From the NCBI GenBank assembly GCA_045613705.1, contig JAZLBM010000081.1:1-35707 (forward strand): 35,707 nucleotides of DNA, read 5' to 3'. A program made the position numbers and the translations under genes. The notes under the pieces were generated by a model. The model had not been told where the DNA came from, did not search any database, and saw only the letters and a program-made list of their open reading frames with translations. This DNA comes from Eubacteriales bacterium. Lineage in GTDB: Bacteria > Bacillota > Clostridia > Oscillospirales > CAG-272. Below are positions 1,885-35,707 of the stretch, in pieces; within the stretch, counting starts at the first letter, position 1, and each line of letters begins with the position of its first letter.

Positions 1885-2932
1885 AGAGTTACCCCGCAAC
1901 GATAGGGAATACCGCGAAAAAAAGCGAAACGAAAACGCCAAGATAATGGCCAAGACTGTCACCCAAAACCTCTATACCTACCTCTGTATAGCTATCCCTC
2001 TGCTGTTGATAGCCACCATCTGGACGGATTTCACCCTGCCCGATCTGGGCTGGGGGCTTGCGGGAGACGGCATCCTCACCGTAGCCCTCATGGTGGTCGG
2101 AGAGCGGCTCATGGTTAAGGTCGGCGCATTCGGCGGAAAGCTGGACGATGAGTATACCGCCGCTGTTAAGCGGTGCAAGGAGGCGAGAAAGGCCGCCAAG
2201 TCTAGAAACACGGCTCTGCTGACCCCATACTGTGAGTGGCAGATAGACCAAGAGTTTGAGCGGGCGCGGAGGGCGCGGTGCTCCCGAATCCGCATCAAAT
2301 ACGATGACTATCTCACCATGTATGAGGGTAAGACTCTCGACCAACTCAAAACCATGCTCCCTCTTGACAAGGCCATCGCGGTAGACCAGATCAACCGCCT
2401 TGATCCTGTCGAGCTGACCCCCGATATGCTCTTGTATGATTGTGGGCGCGGCAACAGCCGCCGCGATATCCCCGAGAGCGGAGAGGAGTACGAAGACCGA
2501 AAGGTCTACGGCAAGAAAGGTCTCGCAATCTCTGCCGTCACCTGTATCATCTGCGTAGGCGTACCGCTTGCGTGGAGCGGGGCGATCACCCTGTCGCGTG
2601 TCATCTATACCCTCGGCAAGCTGGTAGTATTGCTCTACCGCATGTTTAAGGGTTACGGCGACGGCGCGAGAGCATACCACACGGTTGAGGTAAAGCACCT
2701 CAATGCAATCTCCGACTATCTGGAGGAGTTTGTGGATTTTGCCGACAACAAAAAATATCTACTCATAGCAAACGAGTACACGGAAATTAACCGCATCATG
2801 GGGCTGGAGACCCCCGAAAAGAGCGAAAATGTCGAAATTCCGTGTGTCGAATCTAACCAAGAGAGAGCTGGAGACGGCGATCTCGGATGCCAACCTTACC
2901 CCCTTGCAGACCCGAATCGTGCTTGCGCTTAA
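1874..2932 (+). CDS. Membrane protein, 2 TM + large soluble loop + 2 TM
   Basis: AGGAGG (1859-1864) spacing favours ATG 1874; hydrophobic pairs LYTYLCIAIPLLLIATIW/GILTVALMVVG and GLAISAVTCIICVGVPLAW/VIYTLGKLVVLLY. Confidence 0.75.
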   Translation: MPLKELPRNDREYREKKRNENAKIMAKTVTQNLYTYLCIAIPLLLIATIWTDFTLPDLGWGLAGDGILTVALMVVGERLMVKVGAFGGKLDDEYTAAVKRCKEARKAAKSRNTALLTPYCEWQIDQEFERARRARCSRIRIKYDDYLTMYEGKTLDQLKTMLPLDKAIAVDQINRLDPVELTPDMLLYDCGRGNSRRDIPESGEEYEDRKVYGKKGLAISAVTCIICVGVPLAWSGAITLSRVIYTLGKLVVLLYRMFKGYGDGARAYHTVEVKHLNAISDYLEEFVDFADNKKYLLIANEYTEINRIMGLETPEKSENVEIPCVESNQERAGDGDLGCQPYPLADPNRACA

Positions 2933-3050
2933 CCGCGAAGAATTGACCGACGTAGGGATTATGATGTCGTTACACATCCCGCATAATCGCTATTATGCGG
3001 AGAAAAAAACCGCCCTCCAAAAGCTAAAGAGAGCGGCAGAAAATACATAA
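2829..3050 (+). CDS. Small HTH protein (sigma-70 region 4 / LuxR-like)
   Basis: LTPLQTRIVLAL...LTDVGIMMSLHIPHNRYYAEKKTALQKL fits an r4-like HTH spacing; overlaps the upstream gene by 104 nt; RBS weak. Confidence 0.55.
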   Translation: MSKFRVSNLTKRELETAISDANLTPLQTRIVLALNREELTDVGIMMSLHIPHNRYYAEKKTALQKLKRAAENT

Positions 3051-3061
3051 AAATCTATAAG

Positions 3062-3102
3062 AAAACAGGGATATATCCAACAGGGTATATCCCTGTTTTT
3101 TT
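3062..3102 (+). terminator. Rho-independent terminator
   Basis: Stem AAAACAGGGATATAT / GTATATCCCTGTTTT with 8-nt loop and U-tract. Confidence 0.75.
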
Positions 3103-3110
3103 GTTACAAT
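3102..3110 (+). promoter_or_regulatory. Extended -10 promoter element for the 3144-6027 cassette
   Basis: TGTTACAAT (TGnTACAAT) 34 nt upstream of ATG 3144; no consensus -35. Confidence 0.5.
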
Positions 3111-3143: not shown

Positions 3144-3506
3144 ATGTTTAACAATTATAGCAATTTCCCGCAGTACGGAGGCTATCAGCAAGCCCCCGTG
3201 ATGAATCAGGCTCCTGTGAACTACGCACCTCCGCCTGCCACGAATAAGGTATATGTGGTATCCGCGGAAGATGCCATAGCTCGGTACGCATCACCCAACT
3301 CGGTCATGCTTTACGTGCTTCAGGACGAGTCGGCGGTGATCGAGGTGGCTACCGATCCGCAGGGACGCAAGACCCACCGTGTAAGGGTGTTGGCAGAGCC
3401 TCCCCAGCGCGAGGAGGTAAAGACGGAGGATTTTGTCCGCCGTAACGAGTTTGAAGAATTCCGCGCAGAGATGCGGAAGATCTACGAAGGAGGTAAGACA
3501 GAATGA
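3144..3506 (+). CDS. Hypothetical protein with Q/N/Y/P-rich N-terminus (cassette gene A)
   Basis: AAGGAGG RBS; MFNNYSNFPQYGGYQQAPVMNQAPVNY; C-terminal FVRRNEFEEF helix. Confidence 0.85.
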   Translation: MFNNYSNFPQYGGYQQAPVMNQAPVNYAPPPATNKVYVVSAEDAIARYASPNSVMLYVLQDESAVIEVATDPQGRKTHRVRVLAEPPQREEVKTEDFVRRNEFEEFRAEMRKIYEGGKTE

Positions 3507-3724
3507 GCTTCAACCAGAACGCCTTCCAGCAGATGCTCCAAGGCATGATGAGACAGGGTGGGCAGAACCCCTCCGCTTTTGTCAACGGATTTTTGCAAAA
3601 CAATCCGCAGTTTGCCCAACAGATACAGGGCAAAAACGTCCAGCAAGAGGCGGCCAACGCCCTGCTGAAAATGGGATACCCTGCCGATCAAGTCCGGCAG
3701 ATGTTTCCCGGCGCAAAATTTTGA
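3503..3724 (+). CDS. Small Q/N/M-rich helical protein (cassette gene B)
   Basis: AGGAGGT RBS, ATGA overlap with gene A, 73 aa. Confidence 0.85.
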   Translation: MSFNQNAFQQMLQGMMRQGGQNPSAFVNGFLQNNPQFAQQIQGKNVQQEAANALLKMGYPADQVRQMFPGAKF

Positions 3725-3750
3725 ATAAGACCGCCACGGCCGGGTGGTTT

Positions 3751-3800
3751 TAAATATCAACAAATACCAGCAAATCACAACAAATCACATTAAATACCAA
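3751..3800 (+). repeat. Five tandem imperfect 10-bp repeats (YAAATMHCAN)
   Basis: taaatatcaa caaataccag caaatcacaa caaatcacat taaataccaa directly before the RBS of gene C; preceded by a hairpin at 3727-3751. Confidence 0.7.
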
Positions 3801-3820
3801 ATAAGGAGGTAAAAAACAAA

Positions 3821-4561
3821 ATGAGTGAATTTGCAGAAGGCTACGCCATGGGCGCAGATCGAAACAACAATTGTTGCGTCATGCCTTGGGGCATGGGAAT
3901 GGGCATGGGCGGTGGCTTCGGCGGCTGGGGCGGCGATTTGCTTGCCATCATCGTCCTCGCGGCTCTGTTCGGAGGCGGCGGCTGGGGCTTCGGTGGCTTC
4001 GGCGGCGGCGGTGGCGGCGGCATCTACGGTGATATCCAGAGGGGCTTCGACACCTCTGGGATCAACAACAAGCTGAACGGCATCGAGAACGGCCTGTGCG
4101 ATGGGTTTTATGCCCAGAACACCAACACCCTGAACGGCTTCGCGGCTGTACAGAACGCCCTTTGCCAGGGCTTCAACGGCGTGAACACGGCCATCTACCA
4201 GAACGGCTACGACACCCGTACCGCCATCACAGATGTGGGCTACGCCCTGAAGGACTGCTGCTGCCAGACCCAGCGAGCCATCGACGGCGTGAACTACAAC
4301 CTCGCTACCCAGTCCTGCGAGACTCGTCGGGCAATCGAGGACAACACCAATCGCGTCATCGCCTTCTTGACGAACGAGAAGATCGACAGCCTGCGTACCG
4401 AGAACGCCGCGCTCACCGCACAGCTCTCCCAGAACGCGCAGACAGACCGCCTGATCAATCGTCTTGCCCCTTACCCCATCCCCGCTTATCCTGCCTGCCC
4501 TCCTACTGGTCCCTATAACTGGGGCGCCTGCGGAGGCGGCAACTCTTGCGGCGGTTTCTGA
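3821..4561 (+). CDS. Gly/aromatic-rich, single hydrophobic segment, Cys-rich coiled-coil protein (cassette gene C)
   Basis: AAGGAGGT RBS; GGGFGGWGG-DLLAIIVLAALF-GGGGWGFGGF; GF recurs every 11 aa; CCC motif; 11 Cys. Confidence 0.9.
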   Translation: MSEFAEGYAMGADRNNNCCVMPWGMGMGMGGGFGGWGGDLLAIIVLAALFGGGGWGFGGFGGGGGGGIYGDIQRGFDTSGINNKLNGIENGLCDGFYAQNTNTLNGFAAVQNALCQGFNGVNTAIYQNGYDTRTAITDVGYALKDCCCQTQRAIDGVNYNLATQSCETRRAIEDNTNRVIAFLTNEKIDSLRTENAALTAQLSQNAQTDRLINRLAPYPIPAYPACPPTGPYNWGACGGGNSCGGF

Positions 4562-4574
4562 TGGGTTCCAATTC

Positions 4575-4598
4575 GCGGGGGGGCAATAGCTCCCCCGC
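4575..4598 (+). other. GC-rich intercistronic hairpin without a U-tract
   Basis: GCGGGGGGGC-AATA-GCTCCCCCGC between the gene C stop and the gene D RBS. Confidence 0.6.
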
Positions 4599-4616
4599 TT
4601 GAAAGGAGAAAAAACA

Positions 4617-5003
4617 ATGTGCAAAAATAATTGCAAAATCTGCGACAACATCGTGATCTCCGACTCTGTGACCTTGGTGACGGTCGATGGCGTTGATACC
4701 GTCGTGATCGACGTCCCCGCCCAGAGCTTTAGGGACTGTCAGAAGATCTGTCTGGTGATCGCCCAGACTATCCCCACCACAGCCACCATCGTAGCCCCTG
4801 TGGCTATCTCCATCGGTGGCGACACAACTACGGTTTACCCGTTGGTGCGCTGTGACTGCGCACAGGCCACCGTGTGCGCGATCCGCACTCGAACCCGCTA
4901 CCCCTTGGTGGTCAGCACAAACACCACGGGCGGCGTTTTCAAGGCTCTGCGCGGCCTTTCCTGCGCACCCGATAACGCGCTACCCGCCATCCCCGCACCC
5001 TGA
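4617..5003 (+). CDS. Cys-rich all-beta protein (cassette gene D)
   Basis: GAAAGGAG RBS before ATG 4617; MCKNNCKIC N-terminus; alternating V/I/T strands; 9 Cys in 128 aa. Confidence 0.85.
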   Translation: MCKNNCKICDNIVISDSVTLVTVDGVDTVVIDVPAQSFRDCQKICLVIAQTIPTTATIVAPVAISIGGDTTTVYPLVRCDCAQATVCAIRTRTRYPLVVSTNTTGGVFKALRGLSCAPDNALPAIPAP

Positions 5004-5021
5004 CGAAAGGAGGATAACAAC

Positions 5022-5663
5022 ATGAACGACAACGCAAGACGCATGATGCGAGACCGCATGGATCGGAGAGACTACCGAGACAGAGAAGATCGCGAAAACG
5101 ACGGCAGACGGGACGGAAGAAGCGAGTACGAGGGAAACTTCCGAGGCTCCTATGAGCGAGAAGACCACCGCCGTGATCGCGACTACGAGGACTCCATGGA
5201 TCGCCGCGATAGGGGCGACTACCGCCGCGACCGCAGGGACTACGGTGAGGACTACGGCTATCGGCGCAACCGCTACGGAGAGTTTACCGACCGCCGCAGT
5301 CGTGATTACGCAGATGGTAAGGAGCGACTTGGCCGTAAGGAGCTGGAGGAGTGGGGTAAGATGCTTGTCAATGCCGACGGCTCCAAGGGTGAGCGGTTTA
5401 CGCGCAAGCATATGGAGGAGGTTGCCCGGAGCATCGGTGTAAAGTTTGAGAGTTATACACCCGAAGAATTTGCCCTGGTGGCCAACATGCTCTACTCCGA
5501 CTTTTGCAAAGCCATGAAGGGTCTCGTCCCCACGGATCCTGAAAGGGAGGCTATGGCGTACGGCAAGCTCGCCCAAGCATGGCTGGAGGACGAGGACGCC
5601 CCCGAAGGATCCGAGAAGCTGGCTCTGTACTACTACTGTATTATCGATAGCGATGAGGAGTGA
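5022..5663 (+). CDS. R/D-rich low-complexity N-terminus plus helical C-terminal domain (cassette gene E)
   Basis: AGGAGG RBS; about 95 aa with repeated RDY/xDY; C-terminal ANMLYSDF...KLAQAWLEDEDA...KLALYY. Confidence 0.85.
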   Translation: MNDNARRMMRDRMDRRDYRDREDRENDGRRDGRSEYEGNFRGSYEREDHRRDRDYEDSMDRRDRGDYRRDRRDYGEDYGYRRNRYGEFTDRRSRDYADGKERLGRKELEEWGKMLVNADGSKGERFTRKHMEEVARSIGVKFESYTPEEFALVANMLYSDFCKAMKGLVPTDPEREAMAYGKLAQAWLEDEDAPEGSEKLALYYYCIIDSDEE

Positions 5664-6027
5664 CCGCTATCGGTACTACAATCGAAACCCCGATAAGGTA
5701 AAGGAGGAGGACTGTGTATGCCGCGCAATCAGCACGGCTCTCGGAATCCGCTACGATGCCGCCGGTCGCCTCCTTGACCTGTCGGCGGAGGTCAACCAAT
5801 GCGACACCCTCTGTGTTTGCTGTTACCGTTATCTTTTGAGCGATATACTCTGCCTTGACGGGTACACCGTAGACGGATCTGTAACGGTCGCAGACGTTGC
5901 CGCAGATCATCCAAACGATAAGGTGATCATCCGTGTGGACGGTCATCTAACCTGCTCCATTAACGGTGTTGTTCTGGATATCTGGGACTGCACCGACGAG
6001 CTGGTGGACTGTTTTTGGGTGGTGTAA
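5653..6027 (+). CDS. Putative papain-like (C39-like) cysteine peptidase (cassette gene F)
   Basis: NP...DCVCRAIS (Cys), GHLTC (His), DIWD (Asp) in papain-fold order. Confidence 0.6.
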   Translation: MRSDRYRYYNRNPDKVKEEDCVCRAISTALGIRYDAAGRLLDLSAEVNQCDTLCVCCYRYLLSDILCLDGYTVDGSVTVADVAADHPNDKVIIRVDGHLTCSINGVVLDIWDCTDELVDCFWVV

Positions 6028-6061
6028 AAACGCCCCACCTATGTATTTGGTGGGGTGTTTT
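6027..6061. terminator. Bidirectional terminator between the cassette and the integrase
   Basis: AAAACGCCCCACC / GGTGGGGTGTTTT between convergent genes. Confidence 0.75.
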
Positions 6062-6109: not shown

Positions 6110-7588
6110 TCAATCCCCCCAAAAATAGATTTCCACCCGCTCCTCTGGCTTATTATACACGATCTTTTCCACGACCGTCCGCAAAGCCTCGTTCTTGGCC
6201 TCTGGCGCGACTCCATCGTCGGTGATGATCTCCAGCACCCCCGCCACCTTTGCGGCGTAGGCGGCTTTGTCGAGGCTCTGCGGGGCGTTGTCGCGCTCTC
6301 TCATGGCGGTAAGCTCTCCGATCTTGCTTGTGATCTCCTCCTTGGCGGCGGCGTACTGCTCAATGGTATCCACGCCCGCAAGGTAAGCATCTTTAGCACG
6401 CTCCATGCGCCGCTCCTCCAAGGCGATCAGCTTGTCGTAGTCCACTCCCTTGCGCTCGGTCTGCTGGGGCTTGCGGGGGGTGACAGCAAAGGTCTGGGAG
6501 CCGACCGCTTGACGCAGACCGTCTATCACGGCGGCATCGATCCTCGGAACGGTGATGCCGTGGGAGACGTGGCAAGAGCCGATGTTATAAGCGCAACATT
6601 GCAAGCAGCGCGCCTTATTTTTCCCGGACTTAAACCCCGTTCTGGTGAGCGCACCGCCGCAAGCACTGCACCGCACAAGGCCTTTGAGCATATACCCAAC
6701 GGACTGATCTTGCCGCTCATAGGCGCGGTAGGTCTTTTTTTGTTGGGCAAGCCGCGCCTGTACCCGCTCCCATAGTTCGGTGTCGATCAACGGTTCGTGG
6801 CTACCCTGCACGGTCATGATGCTTTCGTTATCGTATTTGAGACGAGTTACGGCGCGGGTGCCGTCGGTGCTCCAGCGGATCTTCCCTATGAAGCACGAAT
6901 TATTAAGGGTGTACATTACCCATCTCTTGTCGGGCTTGTTCCCCGCCTTTGTCCTAACCCCCCTCTCGCCGAGAGCTACGGCAATCTCCCGCGTACTATT
7001 GCCGTCGGCGTACCTCCTGAAGATCTCCCGTACTACATCCGCCGCGCCGCTCTCCTCGTCGGGGTAGTAGCGACCGTCCCGCATCACATAGCCAAAAGGG
7101 GGAGCGCAAATCGGCTCCCCTCTGCTTGCTTTTTCGGTCATGCCGCGCCGCACCTCGGTGGATAGGTTTGTAAGGTAAAACTCATCCATCCACTCGATGA
7201 TACGCTCGATAAGATCGCCGTAGACACCATCCGGCAACGGCTCGGAGACGGACACAACGGCCACGTCATGCTTGCGGAGTAGGTTCTTATAAACCAAGGA
7301 TTCCTCTTGATTTCGCGCGAATCGGGAGAATTTCCACACGTAGATCTTATCAAACGGGTGGTTTTTCTCCTTGGCAACGGCGATCATCAAGTTAAACTCC
7401 CCGCGCTTGCGGGTGGACTTTCCCGAGATGCCGTCATCGTAGAACACATAGTCATCGGGTATCTGGTATCCCTCTTTAGCGGCGTACTCGCGTATCTTTT
7501 TGAGCTGGCTGTCGGGGCTGTACTCGTCCTGTCTCTCATCGCTGACGCGGATATATGCCGCGCCGATCCTTAATAACGGCTCTGCCAT
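6110..7588 (-). CDS. int: Large serine recombinase (phage integrase)
   Basis: AAYIRVS catalytic motif, DDGISG, SRFARN, recombinase domain (PFGY, HEPLID), Zn-ribbon CSACG, coiled coil. Confidence 0.95.
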   Translation of the reverse strand: MAEPLLRIGAAYIRVSDERQDEYSPDSQLKKIREYAAKEGYQIPDDYVFYDDGISGKSTRKRGEFNLMIAVAKEKNHPFDKIYVWKFSRFARNQEESLVYKNLLRKHDVAVVSVSEPLPDGVYGDLIERIIEWMDEFYLTNLSTEVRRGMTEKASRGEPICAPPFGYVMRDGRYYPDEESGAADVVREIFRRYADGNSTREIAVALGERGVRTKAGNKPDKRWVMYTLNNSCFIGKIRWSTDGTRAVTRLKYDNESIMTVQGSHEPLIDTELWERVQARLAQQKKTYRAYERQDQSVGYMLKGLVRCSACGGALTRTGFKSGKNKARCLQCCAYNIGSCHVSHGITVPRIDAAVIDGLRQAVGSQTFAVTPRKPQQTERKGVDYDKLIALEERRMERAKDAYLAGVDTIEQYAAAKEEITSKIGELTAMRERDNAPQSLDKAAYAAKVAGVLEIITDDGVAPEAKNEALRTVVEKIVYNKPEERVEIYFWGD

Positions 7589-14771: not shown

Positions 14772-14838
14772 TGTCAAAAATCTTACACTCCCCTCTGTAA
14801 AAAATCTTACACTCCGTATGTAAAGATTCTTACACTCT
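14772..14838 (+). repeat. Three 20-bp iterons (probable replication origin), followed by an AT-rich tract
   Basis: TGTCAAAAATCTTACACTCC, TGTAAAAAATCTTACACTCC, TGTAAAGATTCTTACACTCT at 14772, 14796, 14819; AT-rich 14839-14870. Confidence 0.75.
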
Positions 14839-14934
14839 AAAAAATTCCCATCTATTTTTATTATATTAACAGAGTTTACAGAGAGAGAAAGCCCGAAAAA
14901 TTAAGCCTTTTTGGGGCGAAAAAAGGAGAAAAAC

Positions 14935-15105
14935 ATGGAAATTGAAAACCGTGACAAAATGAATCAAGTCGTCGGAATGCTATACGCCATTGAGACCGTA
15001 TCGGAAGAGGACGGTGTCTGCTCGGTGGCGCATGACGCAAGGGTCATGCTTGTAGATATCCTGGACAGCGACAGATCGCTGATGATCAAGGAGGATGGCA
15101 AGTGA
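14935..15105 (+). CDS. Hypothetical protein
   Basis: AAGGAG RBS, 56 aa. Confidence 0.6.
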   Translation: MEIENRDKMNQVVGMLYAIETVSEEDGVCSVAHDARVMLVDILDSDRSLMIKEDGK

Positions 15106-15503
15106 TGGCAAACGGATATATCAACATCGCCCACCTCTACAAGCGGATGCCCGTCCTCACAGACACCAACGGCGACTATCTGGTCGCCGTGTCCGACCTC
15201 CGCACCGCTATCGCTATGGCGGCGGTGGAGACGGGGAATGTGCACCCCTTGCCGTGCAATATTGGCGACAAGGTATATAACGTTCTGTACGACGACGCGA
15301 CCGACACGCACATCGTGGACGAGCTGACCGTTACTGAGGTCGGCATCGAGGGTATTTTTGTGTCAGCGTTCTCGCCCGCCTGCGGAGATTTTGGAGACTA
15401 CCTCCAATATGCCGAACTCGGAGACGAGTGGTATTTTGGCAGGGAGGATGCCTGCAAGGAGAGAGACAGGAGGGCAGACCATGAGCAAAGAAAAGCAGAT
15501 TGA
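15102..15503 (+). CDS. Hypothetical phage protein (LPCxIGDxVY motif)
   Basis: LPCNIGDKVY...WYFGREDA; AGGAGG RBS. Confidence 0.75.
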   Translation: MMANGYINIAHLYKRMPVLTDTNGDYLVAVSDLRTAIAMAAVETGNVHPLPCNIGDKVYNVLYDDATDTHIVDELTVTEVGIEGIFVSAFSPACGDFGDYLQYAELGDEWYFGREDACKERDRRADHEQRKAD

Positions 15504-15792
15504 GGAGATGGCGAATGCTATGTGTTCTCTTGGCGAATCGAATTGTCAAGAGTGTGCTACTCATTGGGAATTTGTTACCATCCCCAAATGTGATTTAGTG
15601 GCAAGGGCAGAACGGCTTTACAACGCAGGCTACCGCAAGCAGAGCGTGGGGGAGTGGAAAGAGAATGTCATAGCCTTTTGCAATGTATGTTCGGTGTGCA
15701 AGGCCAAGGTTGACAGATATGCGATTAAGTGCAACAGCGGAAAACTACATTACTGCCCCAACTGCGGGGCGAGGATGGGAGGCGGGGAGTGA
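15481..15792 (+). CDS. Zn-ribbon phage protein
   Basis: CSVC...YCPNCGARM; GGAGG RBS. Confidence 0.75.
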   Translation: MSKEKQIEEMANAMCSLGESNCQECATHWEFVTIPKCDLVARAERLYNAGYRKQSVGEWKENVIAFCNVCSVCKAKVDRYAIKCNSGKLHYCPNCGARMGGGE

Positions 15793-15793
15793 C

Positions 15794-16327
15794 ATGAAAT
15801 CCGTTTTAATCAGCATACGACCGAAATGGTGCGAACTTATTGCATCGGGCAAAAAGACGATTGAGGTGCGAAAGACCAAGCCAAAACTGGAGCCGCCTTT
15901 TAAGGTGTATATCTACTGCACAGGAGGCCCGCCGTATCTCAACAGCCACAATGGCTACTGTTATCTGGAAGAGCGGGATGTTTTGGGATACAGAGGAGCA
16001 GGCCTTTATTGCAGGATGAACAACGGGGTGATCGGTGAGTTTGTGTGCAATAAGATGTTGGAAAGCTTTCTCAACAATAACGATGGATGGTTTGTAGAAA
16101 AAGGGTGCTTGACACCAAAAGAAATTGACGAATATCAAGGAGATAAAGCCATTCTTTACGGTTGGCACATCTCCGATCTCAAAATCTACGACCATCCGAA
16201 AAAGTTGAGTGAGTTTCGGGCTCATGATGTGAGAACTTATACAGACGAGAAAGGCTACCTCATGCCTACGCACGAGATGACCAGACCGCCGCAGTCGTGG
16301 TGCTACGTCGAGGAAGGCGGTGAGTGA
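15794..16327 (+). CDS. ASCH-domain protein
   Basis: LISIRPKW...GKKTIEVRK...VYIY...PPQSWCYV. Confidence 0.85.
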   Translation: MKSVLISIRPKWCELIASGKKTIEVRKTKPKLEPPFKVYIYCTGGPPYLNSHNGYCYLEERDVLGYRGAGLYCRMNNGVIGEFVCNKMLESFLNNNDGWFVEKGCLTPKEIDEYQGDKAILYGWHISDLKIYDHPKKLSEFRAHDVRTYTDEKGYLMPTHEMTRPPQSWCYVEEGGE

Positions 16328-16773: not shown

Positions 16774-16987
16774 CTGCGCTGCACCCGGTTATCCCTGCCG
16801 CGGATCTTATTGCCCCGACCGCCATGTGACTGTCATGTACTGCGATAATACAAGATGCCTTGCCCACAGCACGGGAGCCGATAGGCTCTTCCTTGTCAGC
16901 GGTGTGGAGCTGTGCGTGGACTGCGTGGCATCAATTGCCGAGCGGAACGGGATTGAGATCGAGGATCTGATTGAGGGGGAGGTGTGA
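16745..16987 (+). CDS. Cys-rich Zn-binding hypothetical protein
   Basis: ENHCCDC...C...C...LCVDC. Confidence 0.65.
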   Translation: MTRIENHCCDCAAPGYPCRGSYCPDRHVTVMYCDNTRCLAHSTGADRLFLVSGVELCVDCVASIAERNGIEIEDLIEGEV

Positions 16988-16988
16988 C

Positions 16989-17759
16989 ATGAGCGAACAT
17001 ATCCTGTCCCTATCCTACGGCAAGGACTCCCTCGCATGTCTCGGAGCCATCGAGGCATTGGGCTGGCCGCTTGATCGCATCGTCCACGCCGAGGTCTGGG
17101 CGACCGATACCATTCCGGCAGACCTTCCGCCCATGGTGGAATTCAAGGCAAAGGCGGACAGGATCATAAAGGAGAGGTGGGGGATCGAGGTTGAGCATAA
17201 CCGGGCAAAGGTCTCGTTTGAAAATCAGTTTTACAAAACGCGTCGAAACAAGGATACGTCCGAAATGCATATATACGGTTTCCCTATCGTTAAGGGGGCT
17301 TGGTGCAATTCCAAACTCAAGATGGCGGCAATTCCAAAACCGAAAATCGGTGATGTTTATTACATTGGCATCGCCGCCGACGAGCCAAACCGCTTCCACA
17401 ATCTCACCGAAACCAAACGATCCCCGCTTGTAGAGGCAGGCTGGACGGAGGCCTACTGCAGATTGTGGTGCGAGATGCGAGACCTGCTCTCCCCGATCTA
17501 CACCACGGCGGCGCGGGGCGGTTGCTGGTTCTGCCATAATCAAGGTGTAGATCAGCTTCGTCTGCTCCGCCGCGACTACCCCGAATACTGGGCGTTGCTC
17601 CTTAAGTGGGACAAGGACAGTCCCGTGACTTTCAAACCCGACGGGCATACCGTACACGATTTCGACCGTCGCTTCGCCCTTGAGGACGAGGGCATTGTGA
17701 ATCCCATACACCCCTTCCGGTGGACAATGCTGGACGGGGATGTGCAACTGAGATTTTAG
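16989..17759 (+). CDS. PAPS-reductase-like (PP-loop) protein
   Basis: SLSYGKDS PP-loop, WCNSKLK, IGIAADE, RGGCWFC; GGAGGTG RBS. Confidence 0.85.
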   Translation: MSEHILSLSYGKDSLACLGAIEALGWPLDRIVHAEVWATDTIPADLPPMVEFKAKADRIIKERWGIEVEHNRAKVSFENQFYKTRRNKDTSEMHIYGFPIVKGAWCNSKLKMAAIPKPKIGDVYYIGIAADEPNRFHNLTETKRSPLVEAGWTEAYCRLWCEMRDLLSPIYTTAARGGCWFCHNQGVDQLRLLRRDYPEYWALLLKWDKDSPVTFKPDGHTVHDFDRRFALEDEGIVNPIHPFRWTMLDGDVQLRF

Positions 17760-17768
17760 GAGGACACC

Positions 17769-18176
17769 ATGAAACGTAACATTGCTCAAGCCAGTCCCTG
17801 CGCCTACATCGGCGCGACCGAGGACGAGGCGACCATCGCCGTCGTGGAGTATTGCACCCTGCGCGGTGTTCCCGTTGCGCACGTGCCAAACGAGGGTAAG
17901 CGATCTCCCCAGCAGGGGGCAAAACTCAAGCGAATGGGACTTAGTCCGGGCTTCCCCGATTTGATCATCCCTCTTCCTCGCGGCAACTACCACGGACTCT
18001 ACATCGAGATGAAGGTCGGCAACAACAAAACCACCTCCAAGCAAAAGGAGTGGCTGACCAACCTCGCCAAGAACGGATACGCCGCTACCGCCTGTTGGGG
18101 CGTGGATGAGGCGATCAACACCATCAACACATACATCCGCGGCGGGGTGATCCCACTCAAACTGACAAAGGCGTGA
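17769..18176 (+). CDS. VRR-NUC domain nuclease
   Basis: HVPNEG...MGLSPGFPDL...LYIEMK...QKEW. Confidence 0.9.
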   Translation: MKRNIAQASPCAYIGATEDEATIAVVEYCTLRGVPVAHVPNEGKRSPQQGAKLKRMGLSPGFPDLIIPLPRGNYHGLYIEMKVGNNKTTSKQKEWLTNLAKNGYAATACWGVDEAINTINTYIRGGVIPLKLTKA

Positions 18177-32629: not shown

Positions 32630-35600
32630 ATGAGCGTACTGAAATACAAAGACCCCGTAACGGGGAAATGGAACGTATGCAAGGTGCTGAAGATCGTGGA
32701 GACCTCGCCTCCCTCCGAGGAGATGCCGTCTGATATTCCGTATCACGTAAAAGCAGAAGCCATGCGCGTGGCCGAAAATGTCAAGGGTGTGCTGAGAAGC
32801 GATAGCATCGTGTCGGTCAATATGTCGGACAGCCACTACGTTGGCGAGAAGGCTACGACCGATGAAAATAAGCAGAACGACGTGAGCAGCGTCCGTGCCT
32901 GTATGGCTCTGAAGGCCTTGACCTATCTGCTTCCCGTGGATTTTGTCGCACACCTCGGAGATCTGGGAAGGGGAACGGCGGCAGAGGACAACGCCACACA
33001 CAAGAAGCAGATCACAGACTACATGGGGTATTTCCGAGAGGCTGTGGGAAACGTTCCTGTGTTTGCCTGTATCGGAAACCACGATACGGCTATCTACTAT
33101 CACAAAACCCAGAACGAAGCCGGAAATATCGGCATTCATACCCTTCCCGGTGATTGGCTCTACGAAAACATCACGTCATTGTCGGAAAGCGGAAACACCG
33201 TTATGGCGGGAAAGACGAACGGCGGCTACTGTTATCGGGACTTCCCGAACAAGAAGCTCCGTGTGTTTATGCTGAACACCAGCGAAAATCTGATTGCCAA
33301 TCAGTACGACAGCGGAACGAGCGAAGCCCAGCAGCTGTGGGTGGCGCAGGCTTTGCTGGAGCTGAACGAAAAGCCCGACGCATCCTCTTGGGGATTCATC
33401 GTCCTTTCCCACTACGCGCTGGATTACGGAGACGCATGGTGGATCTCGCGGGTATTCAACGCATACGTTGACGGGGGAAGATTTACTATTGGCGGTGAAG
33501 AAAAGGCGAACTTCGCCGAAAACAATTCTGCAAAGTTCCTTGCTCAATTCCACGGCCATTTCCATTGCTTCAAGACGGACAATATTCATGGATCGACAAC
33601 GGGAGATGGGTGGTCTATGCAGCCCTACGGTGTGTGGAGACTTTGTACCCCCAACGCGGGGTACAACGCGGAAAACACATACAGCGGCAGATCGTTCTAC
33701 AACATCAGCTTTGGCGAACAGGACACCTACCACAAGACGGCGAACAGGGCAGATGAAACCTCTCTGGTGGTCAACGTTGTCAACCCCTCCGAAAACAGAA
33801 TCTATTCGTTCTGCTACGGAGCGGGCTATGATCGGATGCTTGCGACGGACGGCGAGATTTCCTACAGTGTAACCAAGAATCTCACATACGTTACAATCGA
33901 GGACGAAAGCGGCGAATCCATCCGAGAGGGTGACAGCTACTTTGCCCGGATCGTTCCCGGCAAGTCGGGCGTGATTCAATCCGTGGTTGTTCAAATGCGC
34001 GGCGAGGACGTGACCTCCCGGTGTTACAATGCAGACACGGGAGAGATCAGCATTGAGGCTGTCACAGGCTTGATCGTAATCACGGCTGCGGCAACAATTC
34101 CCTCGGAGGTCAATCTCGTTACGCTGGCTACCGAACCGGATGGGAAGACCCCATACGGAGACAACTACGACGGCGTTGGAGAAAACGACGGCTACAGAAT
34201 CGGGACACAGCTTGGAAGCTTTGTTGAGGTTAACACCGATAAGACGGTGGATGCAGTATCTACCGGTTATATTGCGCTTGTCCCATACAACAAGACCATC
34301 ACAATCAAAAACATCGGCACAACGGTGGTTAATTTTACAGCCGCGAGAATCGTAGGATACCGCAACAATACGGGAGTCAACCACGAACGGGACAAGGTGG
34401 CCTTTGAGGCGTCCCTCGCCCCGGACGGAGAAAGCATCATCGTCACACCTGACAGATGGACGGACACGTATCGTGACATTAAGTATATCCGCGTAAGCGG
34501 AAAGTGGACGGGTAAGCCTCCCGAGGTCTATGCAAGCGACATCATCTCCTATGGCGTGACCAAGAATTTGTCCTACGTCTCCATTGAAAACGACAGCGGA
34601 TCCGCCGTAGAAGCAGGGGGCACCTATTCCTGCAAGATCGCGCCCAAGAAAGGGTGTGTTCTCAAATCTGTATACGTGGGAATGGGAGGCAAGGACGTGA
34701 CCTCCGATGCTTACACAGAGGAAACGGGAGAGATTCGCATTTCGCCTGTAACGGGGGCGGTTATCATTACCGCTGTGGCGACTGTAGCACCCGGTACCAA
34801 TCTCGTCACGTTGGCAACGGCAGAGGATAAGGTTTCTCCCTACGAAGGTGACGGATACAGACGAGGTACAATGCTCGGCTCGTTCACAGAAGTTTCCTCC
34901 GAGGAGTTCGCTGATGGAGTGGCCACGGGATGGATCGAGCTTACGCCTTACAACAAGACCATTGTTATCGCCAATATCGGTACGGAGAAGGTCAATTACA
35001 CAGCCGCGAGAATCGTAGGCTACCGAAACACGGGAGTCAACAACGAGCGGGATGCGTTGGCTTTTGAAACCGACCTCGCGCCGAACGGTGAGATCATCAC
35101 CATAACCCAGGATATGTGGACTGACACCCATCGTGACATTAAGTACATCCGCGTGAGCGGCAAGTGGACGGGAAGTCCTCCCGAGGTCTACGTGGCAAGC
35201 GGAACTTCCCATGGAGTGACCAAGAATCTGACGTATGCCTCGGTTACGAATGAAACGGGAAGCGTGATCGCGGACGGCGGAAGCTACGCCTGTACCGTGG
35301 TTCCGAACCTGAATTGCACGATTGAATCGGTCGTTGTGACCATGGGCGGCGTGGACGTAACATCCGAGTATTACACCGAGGCAACGGGAGAAATCCGTAT
35401 TCCCTCTGTAACGGGTGCGATTGTCATCACCGTGGTAGCCAAGGCTCCCAACGTAAACCTTGTTTCGCTGGCGACGGAAGCAGACGGAGCAACACCGTTT
35501 GGTGAGGACTACAATGGCGATGGTGTGGCGGACGGATACCAAAAGGGAATGTTTATCGGCAGCAGCAGTGAGATCACAACCGATGCCGTGGCAGATGGAG

Positions 35601-35707
35601 TGTCTACCGGTTGGATCGCGCTGGTTCCTTACGGAAAGACCATTACGATCAAGAATGTCAGCACTACAGCGGTTAACTGGTCTGAGGCAAGAATCCTTGG
35701 ATGCAGG
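32630..35707 (+). CDS. Calcineurin-like metallophosphoesterase with three ~225-aa tandem repeats (continues at 31-204; 1083 aa total)
   Basis: AAGGAGG RBS; open for 1026 codons to the window end; motifs SDSH, HLGD, IGNHD, LSHY, HGHFH. Confidence 0.88.
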   Translation, partial: MSVLKYKDPVTGKWNVCKVLKIVETSPPSEEMPSDIPYHVKAEAMRVAENVKGVLRSDSIVSVNMSDSHYVGEKATTDENKQNDVSSVRACMALKALTYLLPVDFVAHLGDLGRGTAAEDNATHKKQITDYMGYFREAVGNVPVFACIGNHDTAIYYHKTQNEAGNIGIHTLPGDWLYENITSLSESGNTVMAGKTNGGYCYRDFPNKKLRVFMLNTSENLIANQYDSGTSEAQQLWVAQALLELNEKPDASSWGFIVLSHYALDYGDAWWISRVFNAYVDGGRFTIGGEEKANFAENNSAKFLAQFHGHFHCFKTDNIHGSTTGDGWSMQPYGVWRLCTPNAGYNAENTYSGRSFYNISFGEQDTYHKTANRADETSLVVNVVNPSENRIYSFCYGAGYDRMLATDGEISYSVTKNLTYVTIEDESGESIREGDSYFARIVPGKSGVIQSVVVQMRGEDVTSRCYNADTGEISIEAVTGLIVITAAATIPSEVNLVTLATEPDGKTPYGDNYDGVGENDGYRIGTQLGSFVEVNTDKTVDAVSTGYIALVPYNKTITIKNIGTTVVNFTAARIVGYRNNTGVNHERDKVAFEASLAPDGESIIVTPDRWTDTYRDIKYIRVSGKWTGKPPEVYASDIISYGVTKNLSYVSIENDSGSAVEAGGTYSCKIAPKKGCVLKSVYVGMGGKDVTSDAYTEETGEIRISPVTGAVIITAVATVAPGTNLVTLATAEDKVSPYEGDGYRRGTMLGSFTEVSSEEFADGVATGWIELTPYNKTIVIANIGTEKVNYTAARIVGYRNTGVNNERDALAFETDLAPNGEIITITQDMWTDTHRDIKYIRVSGKWTGSPPEVYVASGTSHGVTKNLTYASVTNETGSVIADGGSYACTVVPNLNCTIESVVVTMGGVDVTSEYYTEATGEIRIPSVTGAIVITVVAKAPNVNLVSLATEADGATPFGEDYNGDGVADGYQKGMFIGSSSEITTDAVADGVSTGWIALVPYGKTITIKNVSTTAVNWSEARILGCR
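33860..35707 (+). repeat. Three tandem ~660-690 bp coding repeats
   Basis: Units start at 33860, 34547, 35207 with S(Y/H)xVTKNL; share GxDVT, GEIxIxxVTG, NLVxLAT, KYIRVxGKWTG. Confidence 0.85.

Follow-up and report, generated by a model that had tools for sequence, protein, structure and literature searches.

A recurrent cassette of tailed phages encoding a predicted coiled-coil rod and a protein with a tail-fibre knob fold

What is built by the six tightly packed open reading frames (ORFs), A to F, that run in one direction through positions 3144–6027 of a phage contig from an Eubacteriales bacterium? The window, i.e. the whole stretch of DNA analyzed here, is contig C81 (JAZLBM010000081.1; 35,707 bp), one of the 311 contigs of a 2.0-Mb metagenome-assembled genome, and its content is that of a temperate siphophage-like genome, as read from Pfam and PHROG scans. 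An earlier note on this DNA had described A–F as a self-contained six-gene unit with C as the shaft and D as the tip of a membrane-anchored fibre, shell or condensate. Comparison of related loci shows that the conserved core consists of a regulator, A, B and C, with D and E exchangeable and F optional. The best-supported architecture is a two-piece fibre, in which a rod (C) and a knob (D) are accompanied by the helpers A and B, a late-type regulator and exchangeable accessories. Tentatively, we favour the reading that this mobile, self-regulated accessory cassette of tailed phages builds an anchored, membrane-bound fibre of this kind that acts late, at the cell envelope.

Every member of the cassette is annotated only as a hypothetical protein or a domain of unknown function (DUF), despite its abundance in gut and rumen phages. 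A literature search, with supplementary files outside its scope, found no publication on the cassette and none naming the domain of E (DUF7841, PF25223) or either of the PHROG identifiers given below. That such a self-regulated module is conserved while its parts can be swapped implies a general, still unnamed phage function; solving it would annotate thousands of genes and could reveal a new way in which phages handle the cell envelope or decorate their particles, and protein engineering gains new material in the small peptidase family as well as in the exchangeable protein of the fibre tip.

Composition and control of the cassette

Relatives of C are numerous: at least 505 were confirmed in IMG/VR by a pattern scan, and 53 loci were found in a scan of one genome per species. 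Iterative profiles were run over those ORFs of the fetched loci that lie on the same strand as the C match (plus), and gene composition was compared across the 50 loci whose C sequences differ from one another and whose flanks reach at least 2.5 kb to the 5′ side and 3 kb to the 3′ side of C. A homologue of A lies upstream of C in 42 of the 50 loci and a homologue of the 73-aa regulator within 4 kb upstream of C in 36; B, which is short and probably undercounted, was detected directly upstream of C in 29. The slots of D and E are filled in 43 and 45 loci, respectively, F is present in 15 (10 upstream, 5 downstream), and the full A-B-C-D-E set was found in 24. A, B and D are all missing in six loci, four of them of Bacteroidales type with only C and a DUF7841 protein, and two with nothing. 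A direct tblastn search detected the other five cassette proteins in only a few loci; when the neighbours of C relatives were read, nearly all loci showed proteins of the same kinds in the same order.

Different protein families occupy each of the D and E slots. The D slot holds at least two, the Cys-rich type found in the window (D1; 16 loci) and a second type (D2; 26–28 loci); the E slot holds at least three families, namely DUF7841 (E1; 13 loci), a second (E2; 23 loci) and a third (E3; 9 loci). Neither D1 and D2 nor E1, E2 and E3 among themselves are detectably related (hhalign probability ≤0.7%), and every combination of D and E families occurs among the loci. The full A–F order is kept, at 39–62% identity, in L003, a complete phage genome of 43,628 bp with terminal repeats. 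In the L026 lineage, the cassette is kept in 58 of 58 usable contigs (22 more were too short), a count that is uninformative on optionality.

The earlier note had expected A–F to be syntenic as a self-contained unit of six. The genes indeed co-occur across phages as a self-contained mobile unit, but not as a fixed set of six, given the scarcity of F and the unrelated families in the D and E slots; furthermore, the boundary of the unit has to be moved upstream to take in the dedicated regulator. In the window, the unit and its borders are as follows.

2829..3050, plus strand: R, a sigma-region-4/ArpU-like helix-turn-helix (HTH) regulator, 73 aa (weak TIGR01637 match; synteny)
3079..3097, plus strand: terminator-like hairpin and T-run closing the regulator gene (scan; the stem can be extended on reading the sequence)
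3102..3110, plus strand: possible extended −10 element, TGnTACAAT, putative promoter of A–F (by eye)
3144..3506, plus strand: A, 120 aa (ORF)
3503..3724, plus strand: B, 73 aa (ORF)
3821..4561, plus strand: C, 246 aa (ORF; phrog_16490)
4617..5003, plus strand: D, 128 aa, with an alternative TTG start at 4599 giving 134 aa (ORF; structure model)
5022..5663, plus strand: E, 213 aa (ORF; Pfam PF25223, DUF7841)
5653..6027, plus strand: F, 124 aa (ORF; phrog_3754; structure model)
about 6033..6057, plus strand: terminator-like hairpin and T-run 3′ of the F stop codon (read from the sequence)
6110..7588, minus strand: large serine integrase, convergent with the cassette (Pfam Resolvase, Recombinase and Zn_ribbon_recom; phrog_95, 3.7e-102)

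The start of B overlaps the stop of A, E and F overlap by 11 nt, and the remaining gaps are 18–96 nt. Hairpins with T-runs on both sides agree with the claim that the operon is bounded by terminators; near F, the terminator scan listed only a weaker site, at 5991–6006. The putative −10 element precedes a ribosome-binding site, GAAGGAGG, likewise read by eye; the consensus promoter scan made no call at 3102–3110, and we only infer an extended −10 element there. R matches the ArpU family (NCBIfam TIGR01637) at 2.3e-4, with 21.4 bits against a cut-off of 43.1 and over the C-terminal HTH part only; its match to a PHROG transcriptional activator is at 0.033. Sequencing runs gave only small shares. 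One metatranscriptome, with contigs about 90% alike, covers pieces of A, C, D–E (a single 945-nt contig) and E–F and hardly any of the flanks, although contigs from an RNA library are no proof of transcription and the flanks may simply differ.

Proteins of the cassette

C matches phrog_16490 (1.2e-24), a family of unknown function, and no Pfam family. Its 11 Cys residues and its single hydrophobic segment (residues ~36–55, between Trp and long Gly runs) were counted as had been described, and the 11-residue period is pronounced: over residues 75–215, the hydrophobicity power is 72 at 3.667 vs. 3.6 at 3.5, and the means for 48 family members are 62.6 and 6.9. This 11/3 periodicity implies that the rod of ~140 residues is a hendecad rather than a heptad coiled coil. 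The layout of C comprises a short acidic N-terminal tail (mean K+R of 1.6 vs. D+E of 3.7 in 48 N-termini), a hydrophobic anchor flanked by W and G, the hendecad rod, which is polar and rich in N, Q and T, a PxPAY motif and a GCGC tail. An alignment of 46–48 relatives displays a near-invariant GLCDGFYAQN and conserved Cys residues at C93, 146–148 (CCC), C166 and C243, with the PxPAY motif followed by the Gly/Cys tail. Right-handed or hendecad coiled-coil stalks are found in trimeric autotransporter adhesins and in tetrabrachion. C resembles them in its 11/3 hydrophobic periodicity and polar N/Q/T-rich rod, and one of the structural matches of D is named for the coiled stalk of a trimeric autotransporter adhesin (TAA); C differs in its N-terminal hydrophobic anchor, its CCC motif and its PxPAY...GCGC tail, and it has no beta-barrel anchor.

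The model of D, based on a 73-sequence alignment, is all-beta, as the earlier note had proposed, with a predicted local distance difference test (pLDDT) score of 90.3; the nine Cys residues are likewise as counted before. Relatives of D form 208 clusters at E ≤ 1e-3, mostly of 110–180 aa. The best fold match, PDB chain 9b45_2 (Pa193 baseplate/tail-fibre chain), has Z = 6.3 over 100 residues, compared with 3.6 for the next, and the region matched is the C-terminal 105 residues of that chain (Foldseek probability 0.84). In BFVD, there are 15 matches at E ≤ 1e-3, which extend beyond the family of D itself to proteins named T7 tail fibre, tail fiber (Xanthomonas and Pseudomonas phages) and TAA-like stalk. 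The model thus assigns D to the distal-knob fold of phage tail fibres. D departs from the knobs of Pa193 and the BFVD fibres, whose fold it shares, in being a free-standing ORF of 128 aa instead of the C-terminal end of a long trimeric fibre chain, in its Cys-rich N-terminal peptide and in lacking sequence similarity to them; no significant PDB sequence match was found for D.

A D-like domain was also recognized in BFVD entry A0A8S5LXP6, a 294-aa DUF7841 protein of a crAss-like virus (E = 2.3e-3, TM-score 0.58, root-mean-square deviation 2.1, 94 columns), conceivably a fusion of the D and E slots that would link the two. A reading of D by eye as Ena (DUF3992) or BclA obtained no Pfam match for D or for five D-slot variants, and neither protein is among the fold matches listed for D. 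With C rod-like and D sharing the fold of a fibre tip, the proposal of C as shaft and D as tip holds for each protein separately, and the fit between the two is by analogy; a complex prediction for three copies each of C(160–246) and D scored 0.03 and carries no information on contact either way.

For the smaller partners, the compositions read from the translations are those reported previously. A has a Q/N/Y/P-rich N-terminus, followed by a conserved, non-repetitive, beta-rich domain of ~55 aa and a C-terminal helix (38-sequence alignment); it has no Pfam match, its profile has no PDB match, and a word-based search retrieved only six close homologues. In the ESM Atlas, both A and C fall in viral clusters named only 'hypothetical protein'. 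B is a helical protein of 73 aa rich in Q, N and M, with no significant Pfam match and no PDB sequence match; an STI1/UBA (ubiquilin-like) reading was rejected as too weak (only DUF1421 at 0.022 and, in 2 of 13 members, XPC-binding at 0.045). E combines the mixed-charge tract noted before, rich in R, D, Y and G, with a DUF7841 domain at residues 100–202 (PF25223, 6.7e-15; 55.8 bits vs. a cut-off of 25.2). The relatives L109 and L134 also match DUF7841, and a DUF7841 partner adjoins C in a crAss-like phage and in Segatella loci as well. The E profile has no significant PDB sequence match, and a ferritin-like reading of the E3 family found no Pfam support.

F matches phrog_3754 (1.6e-15), also of unknown function, and has 142 homologues, in which D20, C21, C23, H98 and D109 are invariant. 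Its model (pLDDT 87; 66 sequences) gave no strong Foldseek match; an independent fold search listed almost only papain-fold cysteine peptidases, in agreement with the papain-like Cys/His/Asp assignment made previously. The matches include Josephin-type clippases (Z 6.1–6.2), AvrPphB (5.6), a group at 5.0–5.5 with ComA PEP (5.5), the C39-like 3erv (5.5) and PCAT 6mpz (5.4), the wall peptidases PeiR (5.3), Lys2972 (4.4), Tae3 (4.2) and Ly7917 (4.1), and also Staphopain and UfSP. Judging from the modelled papain fold and the invariance of Cys, His and Asp, F is very probably an active peptidase of the clan CA type. The Z values of the wall peptidases are below or tied with those of the others, and ties within 1 do not allow a peptidase family to be chosen. 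The sequence searches returned no Pfam family at E ≤ 1 (including Peptidase_C39, CHAP and NLPC_P60) and no PDB match at E ≤ 10. Compared with the clan CA peptidases that share its fold (Z 5.0–6.2) and its invariant triad, i.e. the Josephin clippases and deubiquitinases, AvrPphB (C58) and the C39 domains of ComA and PCAT1, F is only 124 aa long, has no sequence-family match and is seen with neither a ubiquitin-like partner nor an ABC transporter, no ABC transporter domain being found in the Pfam scan of 29 ORFs of the window.

Site of action and rival readings

Host range and genome position bear on where such a structure could act. Relatives of C were found in bins assigned to Oscillospiraceae, Christensenellaceae, Ruminococcus, Erysipelotrichaceae and Negativicutes, and to Alistipes, Prevotella, Segatella, Gastranaerophilales, Treponema, Verrucomicrobiales and one alphaproteobacterium (hosts are taken from the record titles of bins, in which binning errors are possible). 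They also occur in isolated phages, namely Yersinia phage PY100 and its kin, Edwardsiella phage eiAU, and phages of Klebsiella, Aeromonas and C. perfringens. A 2021 paper on Yersinia phage contains nothing on these ORFs, and the eiAU paper lists its homologues as hypothetical.

The cassette lies 3′ of tail-fibre genes in L007, eiAU, the window and its complete relative G001; 3′ of the large terminase gene in L010; between portal/minor-capsid and scaffold/capsid genes in Dulem virus 35 and L102; 3′ of lysis genes in L004, L024, Dulem virus 33 and L234-type loci; and among methyltransferase or early genes in the L026 lineage, PY100 and CPD1. A PHROG scan of 150 upstream neighbour ORFs yielded a mixture of methyltransferases, terminase, endolysin, tail and head proteins, with no constant neighbour. 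Mobile accessory units show just such mixed positions without a constant neighbour. In the crAss-like phage cr109_1 (L286, NC_055892.1, 3102–4723), a DUF7841 (E1) protein (2.7e-34) stands directly before a C-like gene (3.5e-30), in the structural block and directly 3′ of a holin and a lysis-regulator-like gene; the two are annotated there as 'RNA polymerase sigma factor/ubiquitin-like protein' and 'outer capsid protein/viral fiber', respectively.

A comparison with L221 and L222, two loci found via the integrase, offers a clue that may connect the site of the cassette with lysis. The gene order is the same (integrase 63%, repressor 60% and upstream membrane proteins 30–35% identical), and between a 330-aa membrane protein and the integrase, L221/L222 encode a 95-aa hydrophobic protein, holin-like by eye, and a 238-aa Amidase_3+SPOR endolysin (L222:9557–10506), which occupy the exact site of the regulator and A–F in the window. 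No endolysin was detected on contig C81 among 29 ORFs scanned with Pfam or by tblastn with five endolysins from related loci. A six-frame search with ten wall-hydrolase Pfam families, including PF05257 and PF00877, matched only other contigs, although at least one amidase, recognized by eye in L010, escaped this search. G001, the late end of which has the same order and closes with the regulator and then A–F, gave no match to five wall-hydrolase families, for which control phages scored. F, the only hydrolase-like protein at that site, could thus be a wall peptidase; equally, the endolysin of this lineage could be of an unrecognised kind.

On the reading that we tentatively favour, the regulator would switch on the operon late in infection, and C would oligomerise into a rod of ~20 nm, with its Cys layers stapled by metal or disulfide. 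The hydrophobic N-terminal segment would hold the rod, with the cytoplasmic membrane of the infected host as the simplest site; A and B, encoded directly upstream, would serve as dedicated assembly or holding factors, D would cap or partner the rod, E would be an adaptor, and F would trim one component of the cassette. When infection ends, the resulting structure would take part in exit, tethering or exclusion at the cell envelope. The W/G-flanked hydrophobic segment is most plainly read as anchoring the rod in a membrane of the infected cell, and the lack of export signals on the partner proteins (no hydrophobic leader was seen by eye in A, B, D, E or F) places the rod on the cytoplasmic side. 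The link to the envelope is provided by the exchange at the L221/L222 site, together with the position of the E1–C pair of cr109_1 3′ of a holin.

Several observations weigh against this reading. Without an export signal, D cannot be carried by an outward-facing fibre; no cluster of positive charge is present on either side of the hydrophobic segment of C to indicate its topology, and the hydrophobic core of this segment is only 12–14 residues long. The upstream neighbours show no constant tie to lysis genes, and eiAU has a complete lysis cassette elsewhere, with the C-like gene 3′ of tail-fibre genes. Finally, the profile matches of the low-complexity proteins A and B may be helped by composition.

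A close rival, which we regard as possible, is that the cassette is an accessory virion fibre kit, with C and D assembled in the cytoplasm, as other tail and head fibres are, and mounted on the particle. The hydrophobic N-terminus of C would then plug into a socket of the virion, much as reovirus sigma-1 is anchored in the virion by its hydrophobic N-terminus; the D tip would bind a receptor or glycan and be exchangeable, A and B would act as fibre chaperones covering the hydrophobic end, and F would mature the fibre. D shares its fold with tail-fibre tips, unrelated beta families replace one another in the D slot, as happens with receptor-binding tips, and the apparent absence of export signals from A, B, D, E and F, the ArpU late-gene type of the regulator and the positions 3′ of tail-fibre genes, inside head modules (Dulem virus 35, L102) and in the structural block of cr109_1 all point in the same direction. 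However, virion fibres do not usually have a W-flanked, fully hydrophobic segment, the cassette is also placed among early or accessory genes, as in PY100, and ordinary fibre genes lack a regulator and terminators of their own. The known mobile cassettes of tail fibre and chaperone, lambda stf-tfa and Mu S-U, similarly combine a fibre-like protein with small helper genes, move between unrelated phages and have swappable tips, whereas here the helpers are upstream, the unit has its own regulator and terminators, the rod bears a membrane-type anchor, and low-complexity partners and a peptidase are attached.

That the cassette serves host-cell exit in this lineage, with F as a new minimal Cys-peptidase endolysin and C as a membrane-active replacement of the holin, appears unlikely. 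The absence of an endolysin match on contig C81 (ten families, five queries, 29 ORFs) and of wall-hydrolase matches in G001, the presence of a holin-like gene and Amidase_3 at exactly the cassette site in L221/L222 and the inclusion of PeiR, CHAP endolysins (Z 4.1–4.4) and Tae3 among the fold neighbours of F all fit such a role. Nevertheless, F is missing from 35 of the 50 cassettes, is encoded alongside an endolysin in L004 (CHAP) and in Dulem virus 33 (PGRP-type), and best matches Josephin, AvrPphB and C39 proteins rather than wall hydrolases. Furthermore, an unrecognised endolysin elsewhere on contig C81 is quite possible, the contig breaks inside a tail gene, and the six-frame search missed at least one amidase; the separate lysis cassette of eiAU argues against a general lysis role.

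C itself has an ambiguous likeness to lysis proteins. Holins are small membrane proteins (about 70–220 aa) with at least one transmembrane domain (TMD) and a charged C-terminus, encoded next to an endolysin; C has one hydrophobic segment, but also the 140-residue rod and the Gly/Cys tail, and no holin match in PHROG or Pfam. Among membrane-anchored coiled-coil phage proteins, such as i-spanin Rz and phi29 p16.7, the N-terminal hydrophobic segment is likewise followed by a coiled coil containing Cys. Spanins of the Rz type combine an N-terminal TMD and a coiled coil with a paired gene for an outer-membrane lipoprotein and are confined to diderm hosts. In contrast, no lipoprotein partner is evident for C (no lipobox search was made), the cassette occurs in monoderm hosts (phages of Clostridia), and the repeat of C is hendecad, not heptad; eiAU has its own Rz-like gene elsewhere.

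A bolder reading, and in our estimate an improbable one, combines elements of the foregoing: a plug-in organelle kit traded among phages of many phyla, in which a hendecad rod (C), stapled by metal or disulfide, stands on a fusion-peptide-like Gly/Trp anchor, carries swappable D knobs and is assembled by a prion-like A and a Met/Gln-rich holdase B, and which here has displaced a holin–endolysin pair and so can join in the exit of progeny.

Two further readings fare much worse. A bacteriocin-like unit, in which F would be a C39-type double-glycine peptidase freeing a membrane-active killer from the Gly-rich C (or from A or B), is very unlikely: F does match ComA, PCAT1 and C39-like domains (Z 5.0–5.5), with Cys–His and His–Asp spacing resembling that of C39 peptidases, and the N-terminal region of C is Gly-rich and hydrophobic with many GG dipeptides, but F has no Peptidase_C39 match even at E ≤ 1, no ABC exporter was found among the 29 window ORFs scanned, no consistently placed or fixed GG-leader motif exists in 48 N-termini of C, F, an optional member, occurs irrespective of which type of N-terminus C has, and C is a 246-aa protein with a long rod. 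Hardly any weight can be given to a spore-coat-like or condensate shell, in which low-complexity A, B and E would phase-separate or cross-link into a protective matrix: the Q/N/Y/P-, Q/N/M- and R/D/Y/G-rich tracts and the many Cys residues would suit it, and a papain fold might also indicate a transglutaminase, but relatives of C turn up in bins from hosts that do not sporulate or are diderm (Bacteroidota, Negativicutes, Treponema and Gastranaerophilales) as well as in virulent phages of Proteobacteria, which argues against the coat-like role suggested in the earlier note, no Pfam match to coat, exosporium or Ena families was obtained, no transglutaminase is among the best 50 fold matches of F, and E-slot families without a low-complexity tract exist.

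Other genes of the contig and of related loci

Beyond the cassette, contig C81 carries Cro/CI-type repressors along with the large serine integrase, a Sak4-like annealase, an SPP1-type portal and a minor capsid protein, and a long tail region. In the early region, a PAPS-reductase-like gene (16971–17759; phrog_424, 2.9e-31) adjoins a VRR-NUC nuclease gene (17769–18176). The contig ends have no terminal overlap. The last tail ORF (32630–35707) encodes more than 1026 aa, including a calcineurin-like metallophosphatase domain, and continues past the contig end; at the other end, a different frame is open from the first base (1–204). The genome is probably circularly permuted, with the contig break falling within a single tail-fibre gene.

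Three membrane proteins of 267, 142 and 355 aa are encoded in a row at 672–2932, after the tail genes and ahead of the cassette, the first with a signal-like N-terminus and an E/T/P-rich region and the second with several hydrophobic segments. None of the three has a family match, and a search via the 355-aa gene found no relatives; kept in L222, L086 and G001, they may provide this lineage with its lysis or holin apparatus. In G001 (L284), a gene for a Kelch-repeat (beta-propeller) protein (14836–16209) stands at the place of the tail fibre and is followed by the same membrane genes and the cassette.

The virulent phages PY100 (L085:3650–5399) and eiAU (L083:4692–6597) share a four-gene cassette led by a C-like gene. 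Its products are a glycine-zipper coiled coil of the C-like type, a second protein that combines a mixed-charge tract with a helical end, and proteins of 146–173 and 79–85 aa; a MazG-like reading of a partner protein obtained no Pfam match. In PY100, this cassette stands alone on the opposite strand among early genes. A further variant, at L234:9510–12511 (minus strand) beside a related serine integrase, consists of an amidase, a sigma-like regulator, a glycine-zipper coiled-coil protein of 190 aa with a Cys-rich tail at its end, a 112-aa protein and a DUF7841 protein, without A or B. In cr109_1, several genes contain in-frame stops under translation table 11, in line with stop-codon recoding.

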